Made by a program: the position numbers and the translations under genes | Part shown: positions 1 through 19,362 of the stretch, piece after piece | Numbering within the stretch: position 1 is the stretch's first letter | Layout: the number at the start of each line of letters is the position of its first letter | IMG/VR virus record: IMGVR_UViG_2695420739_000013 | Location: 1-19,362 of that record | Length of the DNA: 19,362 nt | Direction: 5' to 3' (one strand) | From: a virus | Taxonomy: Duplodnaviria; Heunggongvirae; Uroviricota; Caudoviricetes | Notes under the pieces: generated by a model | The model's database searches: none | What the model was told of the DNA's origin: nothing | The model's input: only the letters and a program-made list of their open reading frames with translations

Positions 1-24
1 CTTGCAGTTGCCAGACCGCAAGGT

Positions 25-119
25 GTTTTAACAAATCAAAAGGGGTTTTAATAACTGGCTCAAAGCTGAAAGCTTTCCGGAACCCCCAGCCTAGCTGGGG
101 GTTTTCTGTGCACAAAAAA
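25..119. repeat. Left copy of a 95-bp perfect inverted repeat; partner at 19268-19362. Contains an 8-bp-stem palindrome (83-101) followed by TTTT, and the last codons plus a tandem TAATAA stop of a plus-strand ORF entering from the left edge.
   Basis: Seen in sequence: the reverse complement of 19268-19362 is identical to 25-119; the match breaks at position 120 (C versus a 7th A). Confidence 0.85.
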
Positions 120-140
120 CGGGCGGTAATACCACCGCCC
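113..140 (-). terminator. Rho-independent terminator downstream of potD
   Basis: Seen in sequence: hairpin GGGCGGT-aatacc-ACCGCCC at 121-140, followed on the minus strand by a U-run (A-run 114-119 on plus), 11 bp after the potD stop. Confidence 0.6.
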
Positions 141-150
141 GCTTGCTGAA

Positions 151-1197
151 TTAACGTCCTGCTTTCAGCTTCTGATAATACTCTTCATAAATGCTGCTGG
201 CGGAGCCTACGTCATTCTGCCATTCACCATTTTTAATGGTTTCAGCATCCGGGTAGAGCGTTTTATCGTTCGCCACTTCCGGACTTAACAGCTTGCGCGC
301 CGCAAGGTTTGGCGTTGGATAACCGATAGTTTCAGCAACCTGTTTTGCCACATCCGGGCGCAGCAGGAAGTTGATCAATTTCAGTGCGCCTTCTTTGTTT
401 TTGGCATTTGCCGGGATCGCCAGGCTGTCCATCCAGAAAATGCCGCCTTCTTTCGGCCATACCACATCAATTGGCGTACCCGCCTGGCGTGCAACGAAAG
501 CAGAACCGTTCCAGATCATGCCGAGGTTAACTTCGCCTTCCATATACGGGTTAGCGGGGTTATCGGAGTTAAACGCCGCGACGTTTGGCATCAGTTTTTT
601 CAGCTCGTTGTATGCAGCTTCAATCTCTTTCGGATCGGTGGTGTTACCGGAGTAGCCCAGCTTACGCAGCGCCATCTGGAACACTTCTCGGGCATCGTCG
701 GTCAGCAGCAGGCTGCCTTTGTACTCAGGCTTCCACAGATCGGCCCAGCTGGTGACAGATTTCGGATCCACCGCATCACCGTTAACGCCAATCGCCGTTG
801 CACCCCAGATATACGGAATGGAATAGTCGTTATTCGGGTCAAACGGCTTGTTGAGCATGTCTGGATCGAGGTTGCTGAAATTGCTTAACTTCGACTTGTC
901 GATCTTCTGGATCATCCCTTCTTTACGCATTTTATCGACGTAATAGGTTGAAGGAACCACCAGGTCATAGGCACCGTCTTTGTACGTTTTCAGCTTCGCG
1001 TACATGGTTTCGTTCGACTCGTAAGTCGAATAGATAACCTTAATACCGGTTTCTTTGGTGAACTGTTCAAGCAGTCCTGGCGGCACGTACTCGGTCCAGT
1101 TGTAGAAATACAGCGTGTTGTTGTCATCGGCGTGAGCGGCGCTCATACCCAGTGCCAGAGCACCCGCCGCGAGCAGGTGGCGTGACCATTTTTTCAT
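151..1197 (-). CDS. potD: Spermidine/putrescine ABC transporter periplasmic substrate-binding protein PotD
   Basis: 348-aa ORF with an N-terminal signal peptide (MKKWSRHLLAAGALALGMSAAHA). I recognise the sequence as E. coli PotD (established knowledge). Its start overlaps the potC stop by 4 bp (ATGA). Confidence 0.95.
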   Translation of the reverse strand: MKKWSRHLLAAGALALGMSAAHADDNNTLYFYNWTEYVPPGLLEQFTKETGIKVIYSTYESNETMYAKLKTYKDGAYDLVVPSTYYVDKMRKEGMIQKIDKSKLSNFSNLDPDMLNKPFDPNNDYSIPYIWGATAIGVNGDAVDPKSVTSWADLWKPEYKGSLLLTDDAREVFQMALRKLGYSGNTTDPKEIEAAYNELKKLMPNVAAFNSDNPANPYMEGEVNLGMIWNGSAFVARQAGTPIDVVWPKEGGIFWMDSLAIPANAKNKEGALKLINFLLRPDVAKQVAETIGYPTPNLAARKLLSPEVANDKTLYPDAETIKNGEWQNDVGSASSIYEEYYQKLKAGR

Positions 1198-1988
1198 TTA
1201 ACGTCCCCTGTGTTACCTTTCGTTTTATCACGAGCAATAAGCTGGCTGGCAATTACCATCACCAGCGACAGCACCAGTAATATGGTTGCCAGCGCGTTAA
1301 CTTCCGGCGATACGCCGACTTTGACCATCGAATAAATTTTTAACGGCAGAATTTCATAACTCGGCCCGGTGACAAACGAAGAAACCACCACGTCGTCCAT
1401 CGACAGGGTAAAGCTTAACACCCAGCCCGCCGCTACCGCTGGCATTGCCAGAGGCAGAATGATTTTTCGCAGAATGGTAAATTCGCTGGCACCGAGATCT
1501 TTCGCCGCTTCCAGCATTCGCACGTCAAAACCTTTCAGGCGCGAATACACCGTCACCACCACAAACGGCAGGCAGAAGGTGATATGCGAGAACAGCAGCG
1601 ACCAGAAGCCAAGCTGAATACCCAGCAGCATAAACAGCACCAGCAGAGAAATCGCCATCACGATATCTGGCGACATCATCACCACAAACAGCATTCCGCT
1701 AACGAACGGCTTACCACGAAAGCGATAGCGGTACAGCGCAACTGCCGTCAGTGAACCGATAAGCGTGGCAAACGTCGCCGAAAACACCGCCATCGTCAGT
1801 GAATGCTGCGCTGCCTGTAACAGGCTGTCGTTGTTCATCAGCAGGCTATACCATTTGGTGGTAAAACCCTGCCAGTTGATGCCAAAGCGCGAGCTGTTAA
1901 AGGAGTTCACAATCAAAATAATGATTGGGATATACAGGTACGCGTAGATAGCGGTCATAAAACCGCCGCGAAGCAGTCGACCGATCAT
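1194..1988 (-). CDS. potC: Spermidine/putrescine ABC transporter permease PotC
   Basis: 264-aa hydrophobic multi-pass ORF, recognised as E. coli PotC. Translationally coupled to potD, and its ATG overlaps the stop of the upstream potB-frame ORF. Confidence 0.95.
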   Translation of the reverse strand: MIGRLLRGGFMTAIYAYLYIPIIILIVNSFNSSRFGINWQGFTTKWYSLLMNNDSLLQAAQHSLTMAVFSATFATLIGSLTAVALYRYRFRGKPFVSGMLFVVMMSPDIVMAISLLVLFMLLGIQLGFWSLLFSHITFCLPFVVVTVYSRLKGFDVRMLEAAKDLGASEFTILRKIILPLAMPAVAAGWVLSFTLSMDDVVVSSFVTGPSYEILPLKIYSMVKVGVSPEVNALATILLVLSLVMVIASQLIARDKTKGNTGDVK

Positions 1989-2149
1989 TCGAGTTCCACC
2001 TTCTTATTCATAAGGCGGGGTACTTTCAGGATTTTGAATTTATTCAATTTTTTCCTTTCTCCAAAATCTCTCCAAAACTTTTCCCCAAAACAAGGCCACG
2101 CATTTTACAACACTTTTTTCCTGAGATGGTGACGGATATTCCATATAGT
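1985..2149 (-). pseudogene. potB: Start-less 3'-terminal fragment in the potB frame (ends ...LMNKKVELE*, TGA overlapping the potC ATG); the rest of potB is absent
   Basis: Seen in sequence: an open frame of about 55 codons with no in-frame ATG runs from an upstream stop to the TGA in ATGA at 1985-1988. The integrase gene begins immediately beyond it. That this marks a phage attachment site in potB is inference. Confidence 0.35.
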
Positions 2150-2154
2150 GTTTG

Positions 2155-3273
2155 TCAAATAACCAACTTAACCCATTCCTGACCTCGGGTATCGTTATAG
2201 CGATCGGTGGTTGCCTGGACTTTATGTCCTAGTAAGGTTTTTGTATCGATACCCTGTGCACGGTACAGCCGTTCAGATAGAGAGCGTTGTTCATGAAATG
2301 TGGGCGGTGTTTTTCCTGCTGGTGGAATTATTCCAGCCAGATCCCGCGCTTTGGCAAAGTAGTCGCTCAGGTTGTCTTTACTCATCGGCTTTGGTTGTTT
2401 CTGGTGCCGACTATGGATTAGATATGGACTTAATATTCTGTCTCGGCATCCATCAATAACGTCTTTTAACGTTATCCCAATGGCATCACAGCGTAGTGTA
2501 AGCGGTAACGCCAGACGCATTCCGGTTTTTCCCTGGGTGATATGCAAGTGTTCGTTCCACACATCTGAAAAACGCATGTGGCAAATGTCATCACGGCGCT
2601 GACCAGTGACAATCGCAAGAAGCATTGCGTTACGGATAAAGTGTTTTTCCGGCGTTGCGTTGTAAATTTTTTGCCAGTCTTCCAGGGCGAGCCTGGCTCT
2701 GGTTACTTTAGGGATCGGTTTACGGGTAGCCTCCGGAGGATTCCATCCAGGAGGAACTTCCCCTGCATGTTGTGCTTCTTTATAAATATCAACCCATAAT
2801 CCGCGATTTACTCTCGCTGTGCTGACCATGTCTTTATCCAGCCATTCATCCAGTATTAATGCAAAGTCTCTTACTTCCAGGTCTTTCAATGGGTGATTTC
2901 CCAGGCGGGAAACCAGGTATGCAGCCATTCGAGTTTTTTCTTTGTGAGTTGTAGCTGCAATATCTCCATTTTTCAGTCGCGTGTCCTGTATTTTCAGATA
3001 TCGATCAACCCACGCCTTTAATCTGATACCCCGACGTTTTGTTGCTGACGGACTTTCATCAATTTTGCGCATGAAATATTCAGCTTCTGCTGCAGCTATC
3101 CGCTGATTGGCTGTGGAAGCGATTTTTTCTGCCTTACCTTTGTCTGTTCCGAGTCCGTGAAATTTTCCAGTCACAGGATTTTTATACTGGTAGTAAACTC
3201 TGCCAGTTCTGCGATCAAACTTTTCGTAAAGACCGGCTACGTCAGTGCTGTTTTTTCGTGGCCTCGGTGACAT
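2155..3273 (-). CDS. int: Lambda-family tyrosine integrase
   Basis: 372 aa. C-terminal catalytic region (..LAIVTGQRRDDICHMRFSDV.., ..PPTFHEQRSLSERLY.., ..TTDRYNDTRGQEWVKLVI) lines up with lambda Int including the catalytic Tyr context (established family knowledge). Sits next to the host junction. Confidence 0.9.
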   Translation of the reverse strand: MSPRPRKNSTDVAGLYEKFDRRTGRVYYQYKNPVTGKFHGLGTDKGKAEKIASTANQRIAAAEAEYFMRKIDESPSATKRRGIRLKAWVDRYLKIQDTRLKNGDIAATTHKEKTRMAAYLVSRLGNHPLKDLEVRDFALILDEWLDKDMVSTARVNRGLWVDIYKEAQHAGEVPPGWNPPEATRKPIPKVTRARLALEDWQKIYNATPEKHFIRNAMLLAIVTGQRRDDICHMRFSDVWNEHLHITQGKTGMRLALPLTLRCDAIGITLKDVIDGCRDRILSPYLIHSRHQKQPKPMSKDNLSDYFAKARDLAGIIPPAGKTPPTFHEQRSLSERLYRAQGIDTKTLLGHKVQATTDRYNDTRGQEWVKLVI

Positions 3274-3520
3274 GAGTTAAAATCTCCTTCAGTGCATCAT
3301 CATCGCCAGTATGAATTTCCGGCGCAATTCCCGTTTCACCAGGCCCAACAAATACTGCTCGGCGATCTATCAGCCAACGCCCACGAATTTTTTGTGGTCT
3401 TGGAACGATGTATCCTAGTTTTCCGTATTTCACCAGGGTAGTGTTTGTTATTGGGAGACTGAACCGTTTTGGTTTCCACTCGTCGAGCGTTATCAGGTAC
3501 TGTTCGCTCATGGCTATCAC
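3242..3520 (-). CDS. xis: Excisionase (Xis-like); true start probably the internal Met at 3511
   Basis: Small basic ORF directly upstream of int and overlapping its start. YLITLDEW...RGRWLIDRRAV resembles lambda Xis (YLTLQEW...VRRWVRE). Confidence 0.75.
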   Translation of the reverse strand: MIAMSEQYLITLDEWKPKRFSLPITNTTLVKYGKLGYIVPRPQKIRGRWLIDRRAVFVGPGETGIAPEIHTGDDDALKEILTHVTEATKKQH

Positions 3521-3572
3521 TCCGGAACGCGCCAGTTGCAGAATATCAACGACAACTGGCGACGGTTGAACA

Positions 3573-6047
3573 TTAAAAATCAGCCTGACTCGGGATCAGT
3601 TTTTGCCAGATAACTGAAACGTATTTTGCCTGGTAACGGGCGTCATCAAGTGCATTATGGCGCTCACCTTCGAATGGAATAGCCGTTCTGGCATCGAAGT
3701 CTATGGCTTTCCCCAGCTCAACGATTGTGCGTACATCGCGATCGTTGTAGTAACGCCACGGGGAGGGGATCCCCTGCCGTTCGTATGAACGGCGCAAAAT
3801 CGTGTTGTCGAAGTTGGCTCCATTTCCCCAGACCTGAACAAAAAATTCACCGGAGTTTTCGTCGATAAATTCCCGCAATTGTAACAGTGCATCATCTAAC
3901 GGGATTTCATCGGTCATAATGGCAGATTGCGCTTCGCGTGATTGCTTAAGCCACCATTTAATGGTGTCCCGATCAATGACTCCGCCAGCAGTTTCCAGAT
4001 CGATAGTCTTACTAAATTCCGGTCCCATATCTCCGGTTTGCGGATCGAAAAATATTGCACCTATTGAGATGATCGGGGCATCAGGATTTTTTCCCATGGT
4101 TTCAAGGTCGATCATTAGATGGTCACACGTCCTGCTGGTGGATGTGATAACGTGATGACCGTTCACCTTAATTGAGTGATCTGCCGTCTCGCCAGTTTCA
4201 CTATCGCTGGCGTGGTCCTGAGCGCTGCCAGCATTCTCCTTGTGTGGATGTTCAGCGCCTTCCATTTTCTCCGAATCGTCTTCCTGAACTTCAACCTGGT
4301 TCTTGTCATCGAATGTTTCCTGGTATGTTGCGTCGCCCATCACCGCGCCACAATCAGGGCAGTTGCCGCCGCCGGTCTGACCGCAGGCGGTGCAGATTTT
4401 TTCCGGTTCCTGTTGCGCTACTGGTTCAGGTTGTTTCGTTTCTGGCTCGTTTTGTAACGCATTTGGGCTGTTTTGTTCCGCTTTCTGGCCGTTCTGTTCC
4501 GTTTCTTGCTGGTTCTGATTCACTGAATCGCGGGTTTCAATCCCCTTCACCCATTTCGGATCATTCGGGTCGCTAATCCCTGCAACAAATTCACCACGTG
4601 ATACAGCAAGCAACTTATTGGCGTCAGGCTGGCTGATATTGGCTGCCTGCATAATTTTGTTTACTTCGTCAGCGGTAACTTTTACCGGCTCTGGTTGTGC
4701 GATCGTGTCAGATGCACCAGTATTTTGTTGTGAACCTGAGTACGTGCCGTTTTTACGTGCGAAGTATTCCTCTTTTGTGATTTCCGTAGCTCCCAGGGCC
4801 AGTGCTTTTTCCAGACCAGAAAGTTTGTTTGCGCGACCGTATTTTTCGCCGTCCTTATCAGTGAAAAGGAAGTAGAACGGTCCCTCACGCTCTACAGATG
4901 GTTCGTCTTCCACTTCGCATTCGGTTTTTTCGTTGTCCGGCATTGCCGTTTCCACTGCATCAGTTTCTGGTACTGGTGACGGGAGAGTACCAGCTGTGCC
5001 CTGATTTGTTCCTTCGTCATCTTCAAACACGCCCTTGGTAGTCAGGTATTCAGTGATGTATTTGTTCAGTGCTACGGGATCTTTGTGAATGTCGATCGGA
5101 CGCTCACGGACAAGGCCAAAAATAGTCTGACGGTCGTAGCGAACGGCATCGGGTTGTTTGCGCATTGATGCGGAAATGCGCTTCCAGTCTTCGCGATCTT
5201 TGTCGATAACTTCATTTTTTGCCCAGCGATGGATGCTGCCGTCAATGTTTCCGGTATCAATATCGCCAGGCCAGAGAGCGTAGGCCAGTTCTTCATCCAG
5301 CGTTTTCCATGTCTGCTTGTATTCGCGACAAATGGCGGCAGTGACTGGGTTGATTTTTCCTGCTGAGTTTTCAGTGTTCTGTTGATTGACTCTGGCGCTG
5401 GCGAGATCAACAACAGACGTGTATTTTCCAGTCTCTTTGCGCTCTGCGTCCTGCCGTTTTTTCCAGTTACGTAATTCAGCCTGAATTTCGGGCCATTTGG
5501 CACCCGGATTACATTTGTGTTTAACCCATCCGATAGCGAACAGTTTGCGTTCCGGATACATAGCGTTAATTTCAGGCGTTTTCATCAGTGCTTCAACGAT
5601 ATGCCCGTCAAAGGTAGCAACGTCTTCCTGCAGTAATTCCTGCGCGTCAATCGCCATATCAACGGTGATGTTTTCACATGTACCGAACTTAACCAGGACC
5701 GCGTTCTGTACTTCAAGGGACAGCTTGTCAAAATTGACGTTCATCGGATCGGATTCTGGTTCGACCGGAATAAAGGAAGCGGATTCCTCATCCCAGCGGT
5801 TTTCCTGCATATATTCAGCATCCCAGGAATCGAGGGCAGGGCGGGGTATACCGGGTTTATCCTCGCAAACAAGAAATTTATAAGCGCAGTCCTGAGCAGC
5901 CGGATAATGTTCCAGGAATTGCCAGTGAAATTTTGCGCGGGCGCGACGTTCATCACCGGCTTCAATGGCAGTGGCTACAGCGACGGCACCTTCTTCCTTT
6001 ATTGCCTGTTCATCAGGAATAGCAGCGCAAATAAAGACCTTACTCAT
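3573..6047 (-). CDS. Large phage exonuclease with a C-terminal DEDDh 3'-5' exonuclease domain (the type often annotated exodeoxyribonuclease VIII-like in E. coli prophages)
   Basis: 824 aa. The C-terminus carries DnaQ-like Exo I (MIDLETMG), Exo II (GNGANFDNTIL) and Exo III (HNALDDARYQ) motifs. A central Cys4 zinc ribbon (CTACGQ...CPDCG) and an acidic/Gln-rich linker are visible. Confidence 0.8.
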   Translation of the reverse strand: MSKVFICAAIPDEQAIKEEGAVAVATAIEAGDERRARAKFHWQFLEHYPAAQDCAYKFLVCEDKPGIPRPALDSWDAEYMQENRWDEESASFIPVEPESDPMNVNFDKLSLEVQNAVLVKFGTCENITVDMAIDAQELLQEDVATFDGHIVEALMKTPEINAMYPERKLFAIGWVKHKCNPGAKWPEIQAELRNWKKRQDAERKETGKYTSVVDLASARVNQQNTENSAGKINPVTAAICREYKQTWKTLDEELAYALWPGDIDTGNIDGSIHRWAKNEVIDKDREDWKRISASMRKQPDAVRYDRQTIFGLVRERPIDIHKDPVALNKYITEYLTTKGVFEDDEGTNQGTAGTLPSPVPETDAVETAMPDNEKTECEVEDEPSVEREGPFYFLFTDKDGEKYGRANKLSGLEKALALGATEITKEEYFARKNGTYSGSQQNTGASDTIAQPEPVKVTADEVNKIMQAANISQPDANKLLAVSRGEFVAGISDPNDPKWVKGIETRDSVNQNQQETEQNGQKAEQNSPNALQNEPETKQPEPVAQQEPEKICTACGQTGGGNCPDCGAVMGDATYQETFDDKNQVEVQEDDSEKMEGAEHPHKENAGSAQDHASDSETGETADHSIKVNGHHVITSTSRTCDHLMIDLETMGKNPDAPIISIGAIFFDPQTGDMGPEFSKTIDLETAGGVIDRDTIKWWLKQSREAQSAIMTDEIPLDDALLQLREFIDENSGEFFVQVWGNGANFDNTILRRSYERQGIPSPWRYYNDRDVRTIVELGKAIDFDARTAIPFEGERHNALDDARYQAKYVSVIWQKLIPSQADF

Positions 6048-6142: not shown

Positions 6143-6331
6143 TTATCCAGCCGGTGTTTCGTTATTCAGGTACAGCGATACTTTTTTTACCGGGAGGCAT
6201 TCACCAGAAATTTTTTGCTCGTCTCTTGCCTGGAGGCAGGATTCTTTACTGGCATAAATTCTGGTAATCACATTCTGTGATTCACCCGTTATAAGAAAAA
6301 CCGTCATCATCAGTGCAAATGCTGAAGTCAT
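6143..6331 (-). CDS. Small protein translationally coupled downstream of dicB (YdfD-like by position)
   Basis: 62-aa ORF whose ATG overlaps the dicB stop (ATGA). The YdfD assignment is by synteny with the K-12 Qin dicB operon only; the sequence itself was not recognised with confidence. Confidence 0.45.
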   Translation of the reverse strand: MTSAFALMMTVFLITGESQNVITRIYASKESCLQARDEQKISGECLPVKKVSLYLNNETPAG

Positions 6332-6516
6332 TGACGTTCTCCGAAAATACCAAGTTCAAGAAGAGCAATTCGGGAAAGTATGGAATTATCATTGAGCAGA
6401 TAAGGCTCATATTTCCTCATATTAATGGCATCTTCAGTAAACTCCCGGTTACTGAGCAGAACACCAATATCAAAACAACCTTCAGACGTATTAACGTTTG
6501 GTAATAACGTTTCCAT
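6328..6516 (-). CDS. dicB: Cell division inhibitor DicB (MinC-activating)
   Basis: Internal Met of the 97-aa track ORF gives 62 aa, METLLPNVNTSEGCFDIGVLLSNREFTEDAINMRK..., matching my recollection of K-12 DicB (MKTLLPNVNTSEGCFEIGV...). GAGGA Shine-Dalgarno 7 nt upstream. Lies directly downstream of dicF. Confidence 0.75.
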   Translation of the reverse strand: METLLPNVNTSEGCFDIGVLLSNREFTEDAINMRKYEPYLLNDNSILSRIALLELGIFGERQ

Positions 6517-6534
6517 TATCGCGTCCTCAACAAT

Positions 6535-6680
6535 GAATTTTGTGATGCGGTGCCTGGTGCCTCCAGGTGACGTTAACCAGTTAACAATTAACGCCGGATA
6601 CAGAGAATCCACCCATAACACTGTTTTTGGTTTTAACTGTTCCGCGTGCGCTCAGCCGCATTCACCGCATCACAAAATTC
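6535..6680. repeat. 18-19-bp perfect inverted repeat (6535-6552 GAATTTTGTGATGCGGTG / 6663-6680 CACCGCATCACAAAATTC) enclosing ~110 bp between dicF and dicB
   Basis: Seen in sequence. In the minus-strand dicB-operon transcript the arms would form a long-range stem immediately 3' of dicF. Confidence 0.6.
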
Positions 6681-6687
6681 ACTTTAA

Positions 6688-6743
6688 AAACGGCGGCAGA
6701 GCAGTCACGGAGTAAAACTGATACCGCCAAACGTCACCAGAAA
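6688..6743 (-). ncRNA. dicF: DicF small RNA (ftsZ-repressing sRNA of the dicB operon)
   Basis: The minus-strand sequence UUUCUGGUGACGUUUGGCGGUAUCAGUUUUACUCCGUGACUGCUCUGCCGCCG followed by U-run matches the K-12 DicF sequence as I recall it, differing at about one position. Confidence 0.75.
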
Positions 6744-11360: not shown

Positions 11361-12206
11361 ATGAGGAAAAAATCGTTTGGACGTTGCCCGTTTGATTTCG
11401 ACGAAGATGTAAAAAAAATAGCCGCGATAAATAAATATATCCATGCGAAATTTGAGAGGCATAAAAATAAAATAGATAACCTAAAGGGGGTGGAACAAAA
11501 ATTGATGGTTTTACATTACTTTAATGTACTGAATGAACTTAGTAATCAGGCTATATTTTCTTTGAGTACCGGAGCCTTTTCAGCATCGGAAGTATTAACT
11601 AGAGTTATAATGGAACAGGCTGCCAATCAATTTTATATAGCAATTGATGATGGAAAAAATGCACAAGCATTACTCAAGGGTAGTAAGAAATTAGTTCATA
11701 GTAATGGGAAACGGTGGCTGGAGTGTTTAAAATCCAAAGAAATGACTAATCCAGCAGCAGATGAAAGGATTCGTATCGGAAAAGAGCTAACTGATATGTT
11801 TAATAGATTGTGGCCAAATACACCTGAATATCCTGGAACCAAAAAGCTTTTCGAAGTAATTGGCTGGGAAACACACTATCATGCCTATTACGTCCCTCTT
11901 TGTGATTCAATACATACATTCTCTGATGATATGGCAAATATAGTATCTCTATATAATGCAATCCAAAGCGATAAAACTACTGCTATCGAACTCACTCTTG
12001 CAGTTAAACAAGAAAATAAACGGCTGGCAATTTATAATGTCGTAATTGCTATTGGCCTGCGGTGTGAGGCCTTAGTAAATGTATTTAACTCTTTAGGTTA
12101 TCGAGATATTATAACTGAAATGGCGCCAACAATAGATGCAGTCAACCAGATTATAATTCGATATGATGATTTCGAACATTCCAGAATTTTTATTGTCAAT
12201 AATTAA
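11361..12206 (+). CDS. Hypothetical protein (281 aa), no recognisable catalytic motif; first gene of the AT-rich accessory island
   Basis: Long ORF with a perfect AGGAGG Shine-Dalgarno 7 nt upstream. Visibly AT-rich and Lys/Asn/Ile-rich, contrasting with the flanking prophage genes. Confidence 0.75.
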   Translation: MRKKSFGRCPFDFDEDVKKIAAINKYIHAKFERHKNKIDNLKGVEQKLMVLHYFNVLNELSNQAIFSLSTGAFSASEVLTRVIMEQAANQFYIAIDDGKNAQALLKGSKKLVHSNGKRWLECLKSKEMTNPAADERIRIGKELTDMFNRLWPNTPEYPGTKKLFEVIGWETHYHAYYVPLCDSIHTFSDDMANIVSLYNAIQSDKTTAIELTLAVKQENKRLAIYNVVIAIGLRCEALVNVFNSLGYRDIITEMAPTIDAVNQIIIRYDDFEHSRIFIVNN

Positions 12207-12259
12207 TTGGCAGAATTCGTACATGCACAACAACTAGTTATAGTTGACCTATTTCGCTC

Positions 12260-12828
12260 TTGAGAGACAACCATACTCAAATCTTCCACATTGCAGGAGA
12301 TTTGAGTATGAATACGTCACCGAGGAACAAAGACAGTATCATAGGCCCAAAAAGACCACTTCAGATATCTCATATCTGGGGGCTCCAAATCCGGCTTGAA
12401 CTGGAAGGTAAAACGCGTGATTTAGCTCGGTTTCAAGCAGAGCTACGGTGCTGCAACTGAAAAACTGGCAGTCCTATCCAATTTGAGATAACCAAAGGGA
12501 CAAGAGAAGCTGTTTCTGCATTGATAAAGCTTGGCAATTTACGCAGTAAAGACTACTTGTTCCGATCTCGGGTCGGTACTAACCAACACATATCAATCCT
12601 GCAATATAACCGAATCTTTCATAGGGGGGAGAAAAGCTTGGTCTCGAAGATTCGCTTTACAGCACACATTCCATGAGAAGAACAAAACCTTGCCTTGTCT
12701 GCAAGAAAACTAAGAATCTCCGGGTGATCCAACTTCCGTTGGGCCATAAGAAAACGGAAAGCACAGTTCGTTATCTGGGTATAGAAGTTGATGATGCATT
12801 AGAGATCTCTGAATCGATCGAAGTCTAA
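12260..12828 (+). pseudogene. Decayed tyrosine recombinase/integrase: C-terminal catalytic domain only, with an in-frame TGA and a frameshift
   Basis: The stitched translation ..KTGSPIQFEITKGTREAVSAL..DYLFRSRVGTNQHISILQYNRIFHRG/GEKLGLEDSLYSTHSMRRTKP..LGHKKTESTVRYLGIEVDDAL.. carries the H-x-x-R and LLGH...Y motifs of tyrosine recombinases. Stop at 12458-12460; frame change within a G6 run at 12624-12629; no N-terminal domain. Confidence 0.6.
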
Positions 12829-13240
12829 AGCTGTCAGGGCTGCAGCAGCAGCCCTGTGCCAAGAGCGTACCAATATATGTCTCAAAAAATTGGGCACAGG
12901 TCAATATCAATACCAACAACTCTGATTGTGCTCATGTGATTTACTCCTGTAGAAAACGCAGACAGTAAAAATATTTCACTGGCTGCTTCAGACAGGGCGT
13001 CCATCATATCATTACATAACAATAGCGGGGCACGATATCTAGACATGCAGCAACGATGGACATAGAATGAGTACAATCAAAAGCATGTTTAACTACTTTA
13101 ATTTAAAAATCTTAGAATCTTAGGTGTAGAGTTCAATACTTAGTTACATACCCTTTTGAAAGCATCACAAATCATAACTATGAGCCTGTTAAAGGCATAG
13201 GTATTCTTAATTAAGAGCATTTTAATGAGAGAAAAATAAA

Positions 13241-14614
13241 ATGAAAAGACTATATTATACCCATCATGATAGTCGAACCTTAAAACTTGCTATAGAAGGT
13301 GATGTTTCTGATAATGCGAATATTTTTACAGTAATTGTAGGTAAAAATGGCGTTGGAAAAAGCAGATTGTTATCTCAGATTGCTAAAGACTGTATTCAAG
13401 ATGTTCATTTCTTGAAAACTTTTAATCCATTATTTGACAGAGAAATAACACCAAAGTTAATTGCCGTATCTACCAGCCCATTCGATAAATTCCCTCCAGG
13501 GCGTAGGTCATTAAATCACCAAAGGAAAGAAAATAATTATCGCTATGTGGGTATGCGTGGAGAAGGCCCCTTCGGCGTATCAAATGCCGTATCCCTTTTA
13601 TCTTCAGCAGCGAGAGGTTGGCTAGAGAAACTTGCTTATTCAGAAAATCCTGCAAATTTACTCGATGTTTTTCATTCTATTGATTTTGAGCCCCATATAG
13701 AGTTTGTATTTAAACCAACTTACAACGGACCGGACACTCCTGACTATAACTTCATTGGTGTATATTCAGATGAGATATTAACGGAAGTTAAGGAGTTATA
13801 TTTAAAATACAATATAAAAATTGACAGGAAGAATATTGAGAGTCTCTTAAAGTTAAACTCCGAATCACGTCATGATATTTACGAAGCACTGGTTGAAATT
13901 AATCGATTTGAACCTGAACGTAGGGCTGTAACCTTGTCAGTCGATTTTACCAATGGTGAAACATTGGTTGGCTCGACTTATGCGAATAATTATTTTTCTA
14001 GATCAATTCTTAAACTTATGAACGCTGGCTTCATGAGATTGATGGATATGCGACTCATAAAAAAAAGCTATGGTCCCATGTCACTTAAACGTGCGAGCTC
14101 GGGAGAACAATGTTTATTAGTGATGTTGCTTGGAATTGCAGGGCATATAACTGATGGTTCTATAATATTAATTGATGAACCGGAAATAAGCTTGCATCCT
14201 CGATGGCAGGAAGAGTTTATCATTATGTTAACAAAAGCATTTTTAACTTACTCAGGTTGTCAATTCATAATTGCAACTCATTCACCACAAATAATATCCA
14301 ATTTGCCGAATAAAGGTTGTTATATAACATCTTTGTCGAAAAGTTATCTTTATAAAGCAAAATACTTTAGCAACCGGTCTGCAGACTATCAACTTGCGGA
14401 ACTATTTGATGCCCCTGGCATTATGAATGAATACATTGCCAGGTTAGCTTTCAATTTACTTTCAAAAGTTAAGACTGCTAAGTTAGTAACAGATGATAAT
14501 TGGCGTGAATTAAAACAACTCCAACTTCTCCTTGAAAACGTTAATAGTAATGACCCTATTAATGAACTCGTAAATTCCGTATCTCAGGTGTGTGAAATTT
14601 ATGCCAAAAATTAA
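13241..14614 (+). CDS. ABC-type (AAA_15/AAA_21-like) ATPase, Septu PtuA-like
   Basis: 457 aa. Walker A GKNGVGKS (residues 34-41), ABC-signature-like SSGEQ, Walker B IILIDEPE, D-loop SLHP, H-loop ATHSP. AT-rich. Its 3' end overlaps the following HNH gene. Confidence 0.85.
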   Translation: MKRLYYTHHDSRTLKLAIEGDVSDNANIFTVIVGKNGVGKSRLLSQIAKDCIQDVHFLKTFNPLFDREITPKLIAVSTSPFDKFPPGRRSLNHQRKENNYRYVGMRGEGPFGVSNAVSLLSSAARGWLEKLAYSENPANLLDVFHSIDFEPHIEFVFKPTYNGPDTPDYNFIGVYSDEILTEVKELYLKYNIKIDRKNIESLLKLNSESRHDIYEALVEINRFEPERRAVTLSVDFTNGETLVGSTYANNYFSRSILKLMNAGFMRLMDMRLIKKSYGPMSLKRASSGEQCLLVMLLGIAGHITDGSIILIDEPEISLHPRWQEEFIIMLTKAFLTYSGCQFIIATHSPQIISNLPNKGCYITSLSKSYLYKAKYFSNRSADYQLAELFDAPGIMNEYIARLAFNLLSKVKTAKLVTDDNWRELKQLQLLLENVNSNDPINELVNSVSQVCEIYAKN

Positions 14615-15236
14615 AAATCCAATTAGATTCAGCGCAGAGTCATTAGATATTATTGAGAAAAAATTGTCTTCTCCAGATTTTAAGCATACCAACTGGGGAG
14701 ATGATGATTTGCAAGTTCTCCGTGCAGAAATTAGAAATCATTACAGAGAAGAACAAAAGCTAGAATGTGTATATTGTCATGAGCCTATTGGGGTAAGAGC
14801 TGCACAAGCTGCTCCTATAGAGCATATTGTGCCAAAATCTCAATATCTATGTTTTATTTTTGAACCTAAGAATCTATGTGTAGTATGTCCTGACTGCAAT
14901 GAATTCAAAGGTAAAAATGAAGTGTTATTTGAACCCGTAATAAATGGGGGGCGGCGCAAAAACTATCCAACTGCATCTGCATCATTTCGCATCGTTCATC
15001 CACATATAGATGATTATGAGATGCATATTATAAAAGCAAATCGTGTTTATGTGGACAAAACACCTAAAGGGCACTATACCATTGGAATATGTAAACTAAA
15101 TAGATTTTTTCATTATTTTGGGATGTGTGATGAATTTGTTAATGATGCAAAAATTGCTGAGACAAATGAAAATTTTTTCAAAAAAGGTAGTATTACTACT
15201 AATGAATTATTGGATGATGACATTCATTTGATTTAA
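14601..15236 (+). CDS. HNH endonuclease, Septu PtuB-like
   Basis: ATG at 14601 (track ORF from GTG 14592) overlaps the ATPase gene by 14 bp. HNH-type motifs CVYCH...EHIVPKS...CVVCPDCN (two CxxC pairs flanking the catalytic His). Confidence 0.85.
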   Translation: MPKIKNPIRFSAESLDIIEKKLSSPDFKHTNWGDDDLQVLRAEIRNHYREEQKLECVYCHEPIGVRAAQAAPIEHIVPKSQYLCFIFEPKNLCVVCPDCNEFKGKNEVLFEPVINGGRRKNYPTASASFRIVHPHIDDYEMHIIKANRVYVDKTPKGHYTIGICKLNRFFHYFGMCDEFVNDAKIAETNENFFKKGSITTNELLDDDIHLI

Positions 15237-15549
15237 CTATGAATTATTATATTGTAAAGTAATCAGGTAAGATATGTTAGACAGTGAGACTATTGCCTTA
15301 CAGAATTCATTATTCTTATGGATCGCCTTTCTGACTGATTTCATATTGGCGGGGTAACGGGAGTTAAGTAGAATGGCTGCGGGTGCTTGAGGCTATCTGT
15401 CTCAGGCATGAACACCAAAGGCAGATAGAGAAAAGCCCCAGTTAACATTACGCGTCCTGCAAGACGCTTAACATTAATCTGAGGCCAATTTCATGCTAGA
15501 CACATGTAGGTTAGCCTCTTACGTGCCGGAAGGCAAGGAGAAGCAGGCT

Positions 15550-15705
15550 ATGAAGCAGCAAAAGGCGATGTTAATCGCCCTGATCGTCATCTGTTTAACC
15601 GTCATAGTGACGACACTGGTAACGAGGAAAGACCTCTGCGAGGTACGAATCCGAACCGGCCAGACGGAGGTCGCTGTCTTCACAGCTTACGAACCTGAGG
15701 AGTAA
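15550..15705 (+). CDS. hokD: Hok/Gef-family type I toxin (HokD/RelF-like), 51 aa
   Basis: MKQQKAMLIALIVICLTVIVTTLVTRKDLCEVRIRTGQTEVAVFTAYEPEE matches K-12 HokD as I recall it, differing at about one residue. The in-frame upstream extension from 15493 is what the ORF track reports as 70 aa. Confidence 0.85.
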   Translation: MKQQKAMLIALIVICLTVIVTTLVTRKDLCEVRIRTGQTEVAVFTAYEPEE

Positions 15706-18334: not shown

Positions 18335-18364
18335 TGACCATATACATTGTCCGGGGCTATATTC
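18335..18364 (+). promoter_or_regulatory. Candidate Q-dependent late promoter (pR'-like)
   Basis: TTGACC at 18335-18340, an 18-bp spacer, then TATATT at 18359-18364, immediately downstream of Q. Confidence 0.45.
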
Positions 18365-18425
18365 CTCGCGCGTCAGCAAAATCTGGCGTCGGGATTGGAA
18401 CCCCGGATATTCAACCGCGACAGAC

Positions 18426-18450
18426 ACACGCCGCGAGCGTGTTTTTTATT
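18426..18450 (+). terminator. tR'-like intrinsic terminator ending a short leader transcript (Q antitermination target)
   Basis: Seen in sequence: ACACGC-cgcga-GCGTGT then TTTTTTATT, about 60-80 nt downstream of the candidate late promoter. Confidence 0.5.
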
Positions 18451-18611
18451 GTCGTAAGCACACGCACATCTGAATAATGGTGGGGCGTATGGGGGAGCTG
18501 AAAGGCTCGCCGGTTGGTTGATCCGGTAGTTCCAACCCTGTACGTCTCACCACCCAATGATTGGAACCTGACGGTGGTGATAGTTAAATCCATCAACCAG
18601 AGGGCGTTATC

Positions 18612-19172
18612 ATGACGACTCAAGTTTCTGTCGAAACTCTTTCCCCGATCACACACAACCAGCTCCCAGTTGTCACTACAGAGTTACTGGCCAAACTATA
18701 TGGCTGTAGCGTCGAGTGTATTCATAGAAATCACCACCGTAATAAAGAGCGATTTGCAGAAGGGAAGCACTACATAATTGCGAAAGGCGCAGACCTCCAA
18801 AATTTGAAAATCTCTTTAAGGGATTTTCAAACGATCGCCCCAAATGTCCGAAAGCTCATACTCTGGACAGAACGCGGAGCAGCCCGTCACGCCAAAATGC
18901 TCGAAACCGATCAGGCGTGGGAAGTATTCGAAAAACTGGAAGACTGTTATTTCAACCAAAAACAACCACCAGCGGCACAAAACACATCTATCGAAAATGA
19001 TGGATGCGCATTACTGATCCACTTCGATAAACATGGTCAGGTTGAGTTCACGGAAAAGGTGCCCGCCGATGCGATGGTATGCACTCTGGAACGGTTTAAA
19101 TTTTATCTGGAGCAACACGGGTGGATCGTTGCCCGTAAAGAGCAACTGGTGGAGCGGTTGATGCGGCTTTAA
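18612..19172 (+). CDS. Hypothetical protein in the Q-proximal moron position; possible ORF6N/KilA-N-like N-terminal DNA-binding domain (weak)
   Basis: 186-aa ORF with a GAGGG Shine-Dalgarno, followed by an intrinsic terminator. The family guess comes from a loose N-terminal pattern only. Confidence 0.65.
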   Translation: MTTQVSVETLSPITHNQLPVVTTELLAKLYGCSVECIHRNHHRNKERFAEGKHYIIAKGADLQNLKISLRDFQTIAPNVRKLILWTERGAARHAKMLETDQAWEVFEKLEDCYFNQKQPPAAQNTSIENDGCALLIHFDKHGQVEFTEKVPADAMVCTLERFKFYLEQHGWIVARKEQLVERLMRL

Positions 19173-19273: not shown

Positions 19274-19362
19274 GTGCACAGAAAACCCCCAGCTAGGCTG
19301 GGGGTTCCGGAAAGCTTTCAGCTTTGAGCCAGTTATTAAAACCCCTTTTGATTTGTTAAAAC
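19268..19362. repeat. Right copy of the 95-bp perfect inverted repeat (partner 25-119); truncated by the window end
   Basis: Seen in sequence: exact reverse complement of 25-119. The match reaches the final base of the window, so the repeat may be longer. Confidence 0.85.

Follow-up and report, generated by a model that had tools for sequence, protein, structure and literature searches.

The potC-int spacer of a lambdoid prophage as a probable integrase-side attachment junction in the 3' end of potB

What lies between an intact potC gene and a phage integrase gene, and what has become of potB at such a place? The question is raised by positions 1985-2154 of a window of 19,362 nucleotides, which is the whole stretch of DNA analyzed here (IMG/VR record IMGVR_UViG_2695420739_000013). 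On its minus strand, the window carries potD, potC, a spacer, an integrase gene and an excisionase gene, followed by a gene for an 824-aa exonuclease (3573-6047). The interval in question consists of the 166-bp spacer between potC and int and of a 4-nt overlap, ATGA, at the start of potC. Both host genes beside it are intact. The 348-aa open reading frame of potD (151-1197, minus strand), which codes for the periplasmic spermidine/putrescine-binding protein, matches SBP_bac_8 and SBP_bac_6 and is annotated as potD in matching genomes. The permease gene potC (1194-1988, minus strand; 264 aa, BPD_transp_1 match) has retained its native start and Shine-Dalgarno sequence and is 99-100% identical at the nucleotide level to the uninterrupted locus, in agreement with an earlier note on this DNA that had called it intact. 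The same note had read the interval as the start-less tail of a potB gene interrupted by lambda-style integration. According to the present analysis, a lambdoid prophage has very probably entered potB at its 3' end, with positions 1985-2154 as the int-proximal junction of this prophage, attL (BOP' in the nomenclature of lambda). We are similarly confident in assigning this prophage to the type known as PhiCFT073-potB or PP_potB.

The potB sequence in the window is far shorter than the interval. Alignment to the intact potB-potC locus of APEC O2-211 revealed a sharp breakpoint at 2010/2011. From the breakpoint towards potC, in-register identity is 100% in the core described below and in the 100 nt that follow it, and the 1846 nt downstream are 99.3% identical, while the 50-144 nt upstream show 27-31% identity to intact potB, which is chance level. 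As identity drops to chance upstream of 2010, only the 26 nt from 2010 to 1985 (minus strand; 2 nt, the codons for NKKVELE and the TGA) derive from potB and are its only true remnant, and the other 144 of the 170 nt (0.31 identity, with an in-frame stop) are foreign. These 144 nt (2011-2154, minus strand) represent an AT-rich, P'-like phage arm without similarity to potB, and the GC content falls from 0.51 in potC to 0.37 in the arm. A megablast search with window positions 1-4000 against 5426 complete E. coli genomes divided the collection into two classes. In 1615 genomes the match runs on through int and xis, whereas the remaining genomes match to 2010 only and are annotated potD-potC-potB at this place. 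Altogether, 1615-1623 of the 5426 genomes carry the junction (about 30%). No known RNA family was found within 1985-2154.

The TGA of the remnant (1987-1985) overlaps the potC ATG (1988-1986) exactly as in the uninterrupted locus, where PotB ends in RLLNKKVELE. The earlier note had correctly seen a minus-strand frame ending in LMNKKVELE with this native potB-potC coupling, but had given it about 55 codons and no ATG. An in-frame TAA at 2105-2107 limits the frame to 39 codons plus stop (1985-2104, minus strand), and it does hold an ATG at 2011-2009, composed of a phage A and the TG of the core, in addition to one GTG and one TTG. Since only its last 26 nt derive from potB and upstream identity is at chance level, the frame is a chance frame over arm, core and potB tail, neither a gene nor a coding remnant of potB; the potB tail itself amounts to seven codons. 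It would be very surprising if the frame encoded a real small protein, be it phage-encoded or fused to the PotB tail, with translation coupled to potC. Such a protein could be imagined from the 39 open codons that finish in the ATGA overlap and from the ATG created at the junction, which opens an 8-codon mini-ORF (1985-2011, minus strand; ATG AAT AAG AAG GTG GAA CTC GAA TGA, MNKKVELE) that ends in a stop codon shared in part with the start of potC. Yet 39 open codons are unremarkable in DNA of 37% GC, the frame runs across tandemly repeated DNA of the kind usual in Int arm sites, and the residues next to the core are not constant between strains (VPRL, VLHL or VSRL). On reading the sequence, no ribosome-binding site was seen upstream of the junction ATG, so the mini-ORF is probably meaningless, and the stretch 1985-2104 is without annotation in the annotated lysogens inspected. 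Genome annotation should treat such a stretch as an att junction; neither small ORF nor potB pseudogene is the appropriate label, and at the other end of the prophage an intact potB is to be expected.

If the interval is an attachment junction, the sequence at its breakpoint should return at the far end of the prophage. The window ends inside the prophage and the far end was read from complete genomes that share the same junction. A 14-bp core, TGAATAAGAAGGTG, was found in attB, in attP and at both prophage junctions; in the window it occurs once (1997-2010, minus strand) and it holds the potC ribosome-binding site AAGGTGG. In the attB seen in APEC O2-211, the potB body is followed by TGAATAAGAAGGTG and then by gaactcgaATGA, which leads into potC. 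In the int-side junction of the window, the phage arm takes the place of the potB body in front of the same core and gaactcgaATGA. In the far junction of strains 7/2 and E2348/69, both of which have the same int-potC junction, the potB body runs through the core into the phage sequence agcgaattagatgattaa. This is the direct repeat that the earlier note had proposed to look for at the other prophage end, just as the suggested alignment to an uninterrupted potB had located the stop of identity. A variant far arm is present in O157:H7 FRIK804, which has only TGAATAAGAAGG, the first 12 bp of the core, in common.

From the two junctions an attP could be predicted, and the IMG/VR collection was searched with a 33-mer composed of CCTTA, the core and AGCGAATTAGATGA. 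The predicted site was found exactly in three contigs (L009, L010 and L011). In L009 and L011 it is flanked on one side by the arm, int and xis of the window (97.6-97.7% identity over 1510 nt) and on the other by the far arm of strain 7/2 (98-99.5% identity over 1.4-2.2 kb); L010 has the same site within approximately 130 bp of the contig end. In all three the arm adjoining int is that of the window, and neither a potC-potD nor a potB-body query matched any of the three loci. Together with attB and the two junctions, these contigs complete the four att sites of a conservative site-specific recombination, all of them observed, and an identical core marks the switch of identity in attB, attP, attL and attR, with 7/2 and E2348/69 supplying the far junctions. 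The contigs with attP also lend indirect support to an integration and excision that would depend on Int and Xis. A free-phage genome with this integrase was not found in INPHARED, where only two matches appeared. Both are partial genomes (ON470612.1, vB_EcoS-640R1, and ON470619.1, vB_EcoS-813R8) that contain the host genes ycfZ, ymfA, potD and potC and were set aside as over-extended prophage predictions rather than packaged phage genomes. The next phage integrases retrieved by protein search are at most 50% identical. A short patch of the arm at 2012-2021 (minus strand) differs among otherwise near-identical arms, reading gtaccccgcc in the window, gtgctccacc in 7/2, L009 and L011, and gtgtcccgcc in E2348/69 and L010.

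The enzyme that would have produced this arrangement is encoded next door and on the same strand. The int gene (2155-3273, minus strand) directly abuts the interval with its stop codon at 2155-2157, not 6 bp beyond it as the earlier note had stated, and codes for a lambda-type tyrosine integrase of 372 aa with Arm-DNA-bind_1 (E = 3.7e-21) and Phage_integrase matches. Identity of this protein to lambda Int amounts to 37% in a MAFFT alignment and 44.8% by tblastn. The six catalytic residues of lambda Int, which we take to be R212, K235, H308, R311, H333 and Y342, are conserved in this alignment in the motifs VTGQR, KTG, FHExRSL, LLGHK and RY, and a tyrosine recombinase with the complete R-K-H-R-H-Y set therefore adjoins the junction. 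The excisionase gene xis (3242-3520, minus strand) lies next to int and overlaps its 5' end; its product reaches the Exc family at the cut-off score and is annotated as an excisionase in matching genomes. The lambda-style integration into a gene end postulated by the earlier note is borne out by the sharp break of identity, the core repeat and this neighboring integrase.

A different origin of the junction has to be weighed at this point. An element already resident at potB might have taken up int and xis through homologous recombination, or the two ends might resemble each other by coincidence, so that the Int encoded here would not have made the junction. Prophages at this site are indeed highly mosaic, and strain ML35 combines an identical region of int and att with a different interior. 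Interior mosaicism does not account for a 14-bp core placed exactly at both breakpoints, nor for the exact occurrence of the predicted attP, and the chance of a 14-bp match at a fixed position is about 4e-9. We regard both variants of this explanation as highly improbable and retain the reading of the interval as an attL formed by Int.

The N-terminal arm-binding domain of Int has candidate counterparts in the att arms. Three tandem repeats, TTTTGGAGA, TTTTGGAGA and TTTTGGGGA, are located at about 2056-2090 (minus strand), 46-80 bp from the core and with spacings of 11 and 13 bp, and are putative arm-type Int-binding sites. The 9-mer recurs approximately 117 bp from the core in the far arms of both 7/2 and O157, which are otherwise diverged. 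In the whole window it is not enriched (8 found versus 7.4 expected), and it is its clustering and conserved position that suggest a function. A scan of attP for dyads of the 7-7-7 type gave one clear best solution with six of seven matches, CACCTTA and GAAGGTG around TGAATAA. The predicted 7-bp overlap for strand exchange is therefore TGAATAA (2004-2010, minus strand), which was assigned by this dyad scan rather than by a mapped crossover and falls within the 12 bp that the two variant arms share. In the window, the first 7 nt of the phage arm, CGCCTTA (2011-2017, minus strand), would be a core-type Int site. The variable patch at 2012-2021 overlaps this candidate site and extends just outside it, beside the crossover region. 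The IHF consensus WATCAANNNNTTR was not matched with up to one mismatch in the int-side arm (2011-2154). In the far arm, alignment reading identified an IHF-like motif, AATCAAnnnnTT, beside the arm-type 9-mer, which is perfect in O157 and has one mismatch in 7/2.

The course of integration can be envisaged as follows. The lambda-type Int would recombine the phage attP with attB, which occupies the very 3' terminus of potB, both sites sharing a core of 12-14 bp, TGAATAAGAAGG with or without the terminal TG. Strand exchange would probably occur in TGAATAA between the imperfect inverted core-type sites CRCCTTA and GAAGGTG. The junction represented by the window would keep the phage arm and the core, together with the 12 native nucleotides with which potB ends, stop codon included, and the intact potC and potD genes, whereas at the far junction the potB body would be joined via the core to a phage-borne look-alike of its tail. 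The potABCD operon would thereby be split by roughly 41-49 kb and potCD placed directly downstream of xis and int on the same strand.

The far ends of related lysogens fit this scheme. In strain 7/2, potA and potB are located approximately 49 kb away, and potB is annotated as intact with 287 aa ending in RLLNKKVSELDD; E2348/69 has the same PotB protein approximately 41 kb away. The prophage thus lies between the potB body and potC in the window and in these two strains and separates potAB from potCD, as the earlier note had expected. The PotB tail of 7/2 and E2348/69 reads NKKVSELDD (287 aa) compared to NKKVELE in the native protein (285 aa), and in FRIK804 it reads NKKATEIDN, again with 287 aa. 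Fusion of the potB body through the core to the phage tail hence leaves PotB at full length, with SELDD or ATEIDN instead of ELE, and in all three strains the potB ORF is completed by a phage-borne end; as a gene, potB is not reduced to a tail in the way the earlier note had put it. The substitute C-terminus that the earlier note had attributed to the phage arm is real, but it is supplied at the far junction and not in this window. The genes next to potB at the far end differ between lysogens: FRIK804 carries the type III effector gene espK there (L007, 2036-3186) and ML35 an nleB gene disrupted by IS1 (L013, 47881-49638).

The far end of this isolate lies outside the 19.4-kb window, and the restoration of its potB is inferred from other strains; presumably it resembles the far end of 7/2 and E2348/69. 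In the opposite outcome, potB would be truly destroyed. It would mean that the prophage no longer has its far end or has it in rearranged form, for instance after an IS- or prophage-mediated deletion or inversion, that the 26-nt tail is all that remains of potB and that PotABCD is non-functional. Besides the position of the far end beyond the window, the apparent bounding of the window by two IS200 ends would be compatible with such an event, and inversions and deletions with the potC prophage as a breakpoint have been documented in O157:H7 (PMC10925052). Against it stand the potB 3' body, which is kept up to the core in all 5426 complete genomes (964 of them with a far arm of the 7/2 type), and the complete potB at the far junction of every lysogen examined (7/2, E2348/69 and FRIK804). 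Destruction of potB in this isolate therefore appears improbable, and an intact potB with a phage-borne end remains the preferred reading.

The junction resembles lambda attL (BOP') in several respects: the integrase has arm-binding and catalytic domains, xis overlaps int, and three tandem putative arm-type repeats occupy the int-adjacent arm like P'1-P'3, next to a predicted 7-bp overlap with inverted core sites. It differs from lambda in that lambda inserts between gal and bio and not inside a gene, in the sequences of the arm-type and core sites, in an Int that is only 37-45% identical, and in an int-side arm without a good IHF site. Phages that insert in the 3' end of a gene carry a replacement end; examples from the insertion sites studied by A. 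Campbell are e14 and phage 21, both of which use icd. In common with these, attP mimics the end of the gene and the interrupted gene keeps a full reading frame with a slightly altered terminus. Unlike in e14 and phage 21, only three to four residues are replaced here and two are added, and the interrupted gene is internal to an operon, so that potCD is separated from its promoter. Integration of Rac in ttcA changes the N-terminus of TtcA (PMC4632033).

The potB/potC locus is an established and very common prophage site of E. coli. A passage in PMC8065619, citing Steyert et al., names potC among the insertion sites of Stx phages, O157:H7 carries a "prophage 5 (potC)" (PMC10925052), clade 8 O157:H7 has PP_potB (PMC9997748) and CFT073 harbors the 44-kb PhiCFT073-potB or PhipotB (PMC4632033, PMC3573123). 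PhiCFT073-potB, PP_potB, "prophage 5 (potC)" and the potC Stx-phage site of LEE-negative STEC all share with the window the same site and a lambdoid prophage between the end of potB and potC. The junction in the window is thus genuine, yet an ordinary case of insertion at the 3' end of potB. These published accounts name the site only; descriptions of the 14-bp core, of the repeats in the arm or of the altered PotB tails, all of them routine detail, were not found there. About a third of sequenced E. coli use the locus as a hotspot for lambdoid prophages, some of which carry Stx or effector genes.

The int-potC junction of the window recurs with 97-100% identity in approximately 1620 complete genomes of E. 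coli, those of O157:H7, E2348/69, ATCC 25922 and ML35 among them. The prophage interior is mosaic and unlike that of any complete genome of the collection. No complete E. coli genome matched the whole window; E2348/69 reached 86% coverage with 96.8% identity. Over 1960-3560, which comprises the junction, int and xis, ML35 and the window are 100% identical. Int and att move as one module among lambdoid prophages of mosaic structure. In its immunity and replication region, ML35 has a LexA-family repressor in place of the 135-aa HTH repressor of the window.

The split of the operon raises the question of how potCD is expressed and whether the separation of potAB from potCD alters polyamine uptake in lysogens. 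The only internal RpoD site reported for the potABCD operon of K-12 is at potA/potB, on the far side of the insertion (PMC3946193). A scan of the minus strand from xis to potC found no consensus promoter, and a relaxed scan requiring eight of twelve matches returned weak sites only. Neither the minus strand from int to potC nor the far arm yielded a terminator. Given the split operon and this lack of a consensus promoter or terminator between xis and potC, transcription of potCD would proceed by read-through from the leftward operon of the prophage or from weak promoters. A search of the literature found no direct measurement, for lysogens of this kind, of spermidine uptake or of the expression of potCD. 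It is conceivable, if rather doubtful, that in about 30% of E. coli strains PotC and PotD are made only at a low level or only by prophage read-through. If this were true, spermidine uptake would vary with the prophage state, and lysogeny would have a regulatory side-effect of which no description was found in the literature consulted.

Several further features of the window concern its ends and its interior. Positions 1-113 and 19284-19362 match STnc490, the RNA family of IS200 5' ends, on opposite strands, and strain 7/2 has an IS200C copy at the corresponding position beside potD. The assembly of this contig seems to have broken at two IS200 copies, one beside potD and the other inside the prophage. 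On the minus strand, a DicF antisense RNA (6691-6742, 72.5 bits) precedes short ORFs at the position of ydfD/dicB in related prophages. This region (6143-6742) is a Qin-like cell-division-inhibition operon with the same leftward orientation as xis-int-potCD.

A Septu defence pair is encoded on the plus strand at 13241-15236 and consists of overlapping genes for PtuA (457 aa, AAA_21/AAA_15, PADLOC E = 1e-165) and PtuB (214 aa, HNH, E = 1e-83); the potB prophage of E2348/69 has the same pair. Upstream of it (11361-13240) are the gene of a DUF5677 protein (281 aa) and then approximately 1 kb with short ORFs only, and E2348/69 has an annotated frameshifted tyrosine recombinase at this position. 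The arrangement at 11361-13240 suggests a small island inserted in the early region of the prophage. A hok/sok type I toxin-antitoxin system follows on the plus strand (15381-15705), with a sok RNA scoring 117 bits and an ORF of 70 aa that takes the position of the annotated hokD of related prophages. Towards the end of the window (18357-19172, plus strand), matches to c4-a1b1, isrK and C4 indicate a C4 antisense RNA module in the style of P1/P7, which is followed by a 186-aa protein with an ORF6N domain; the arrangement has the appearance of an antirepressor immunity module within the late-regulatory region.
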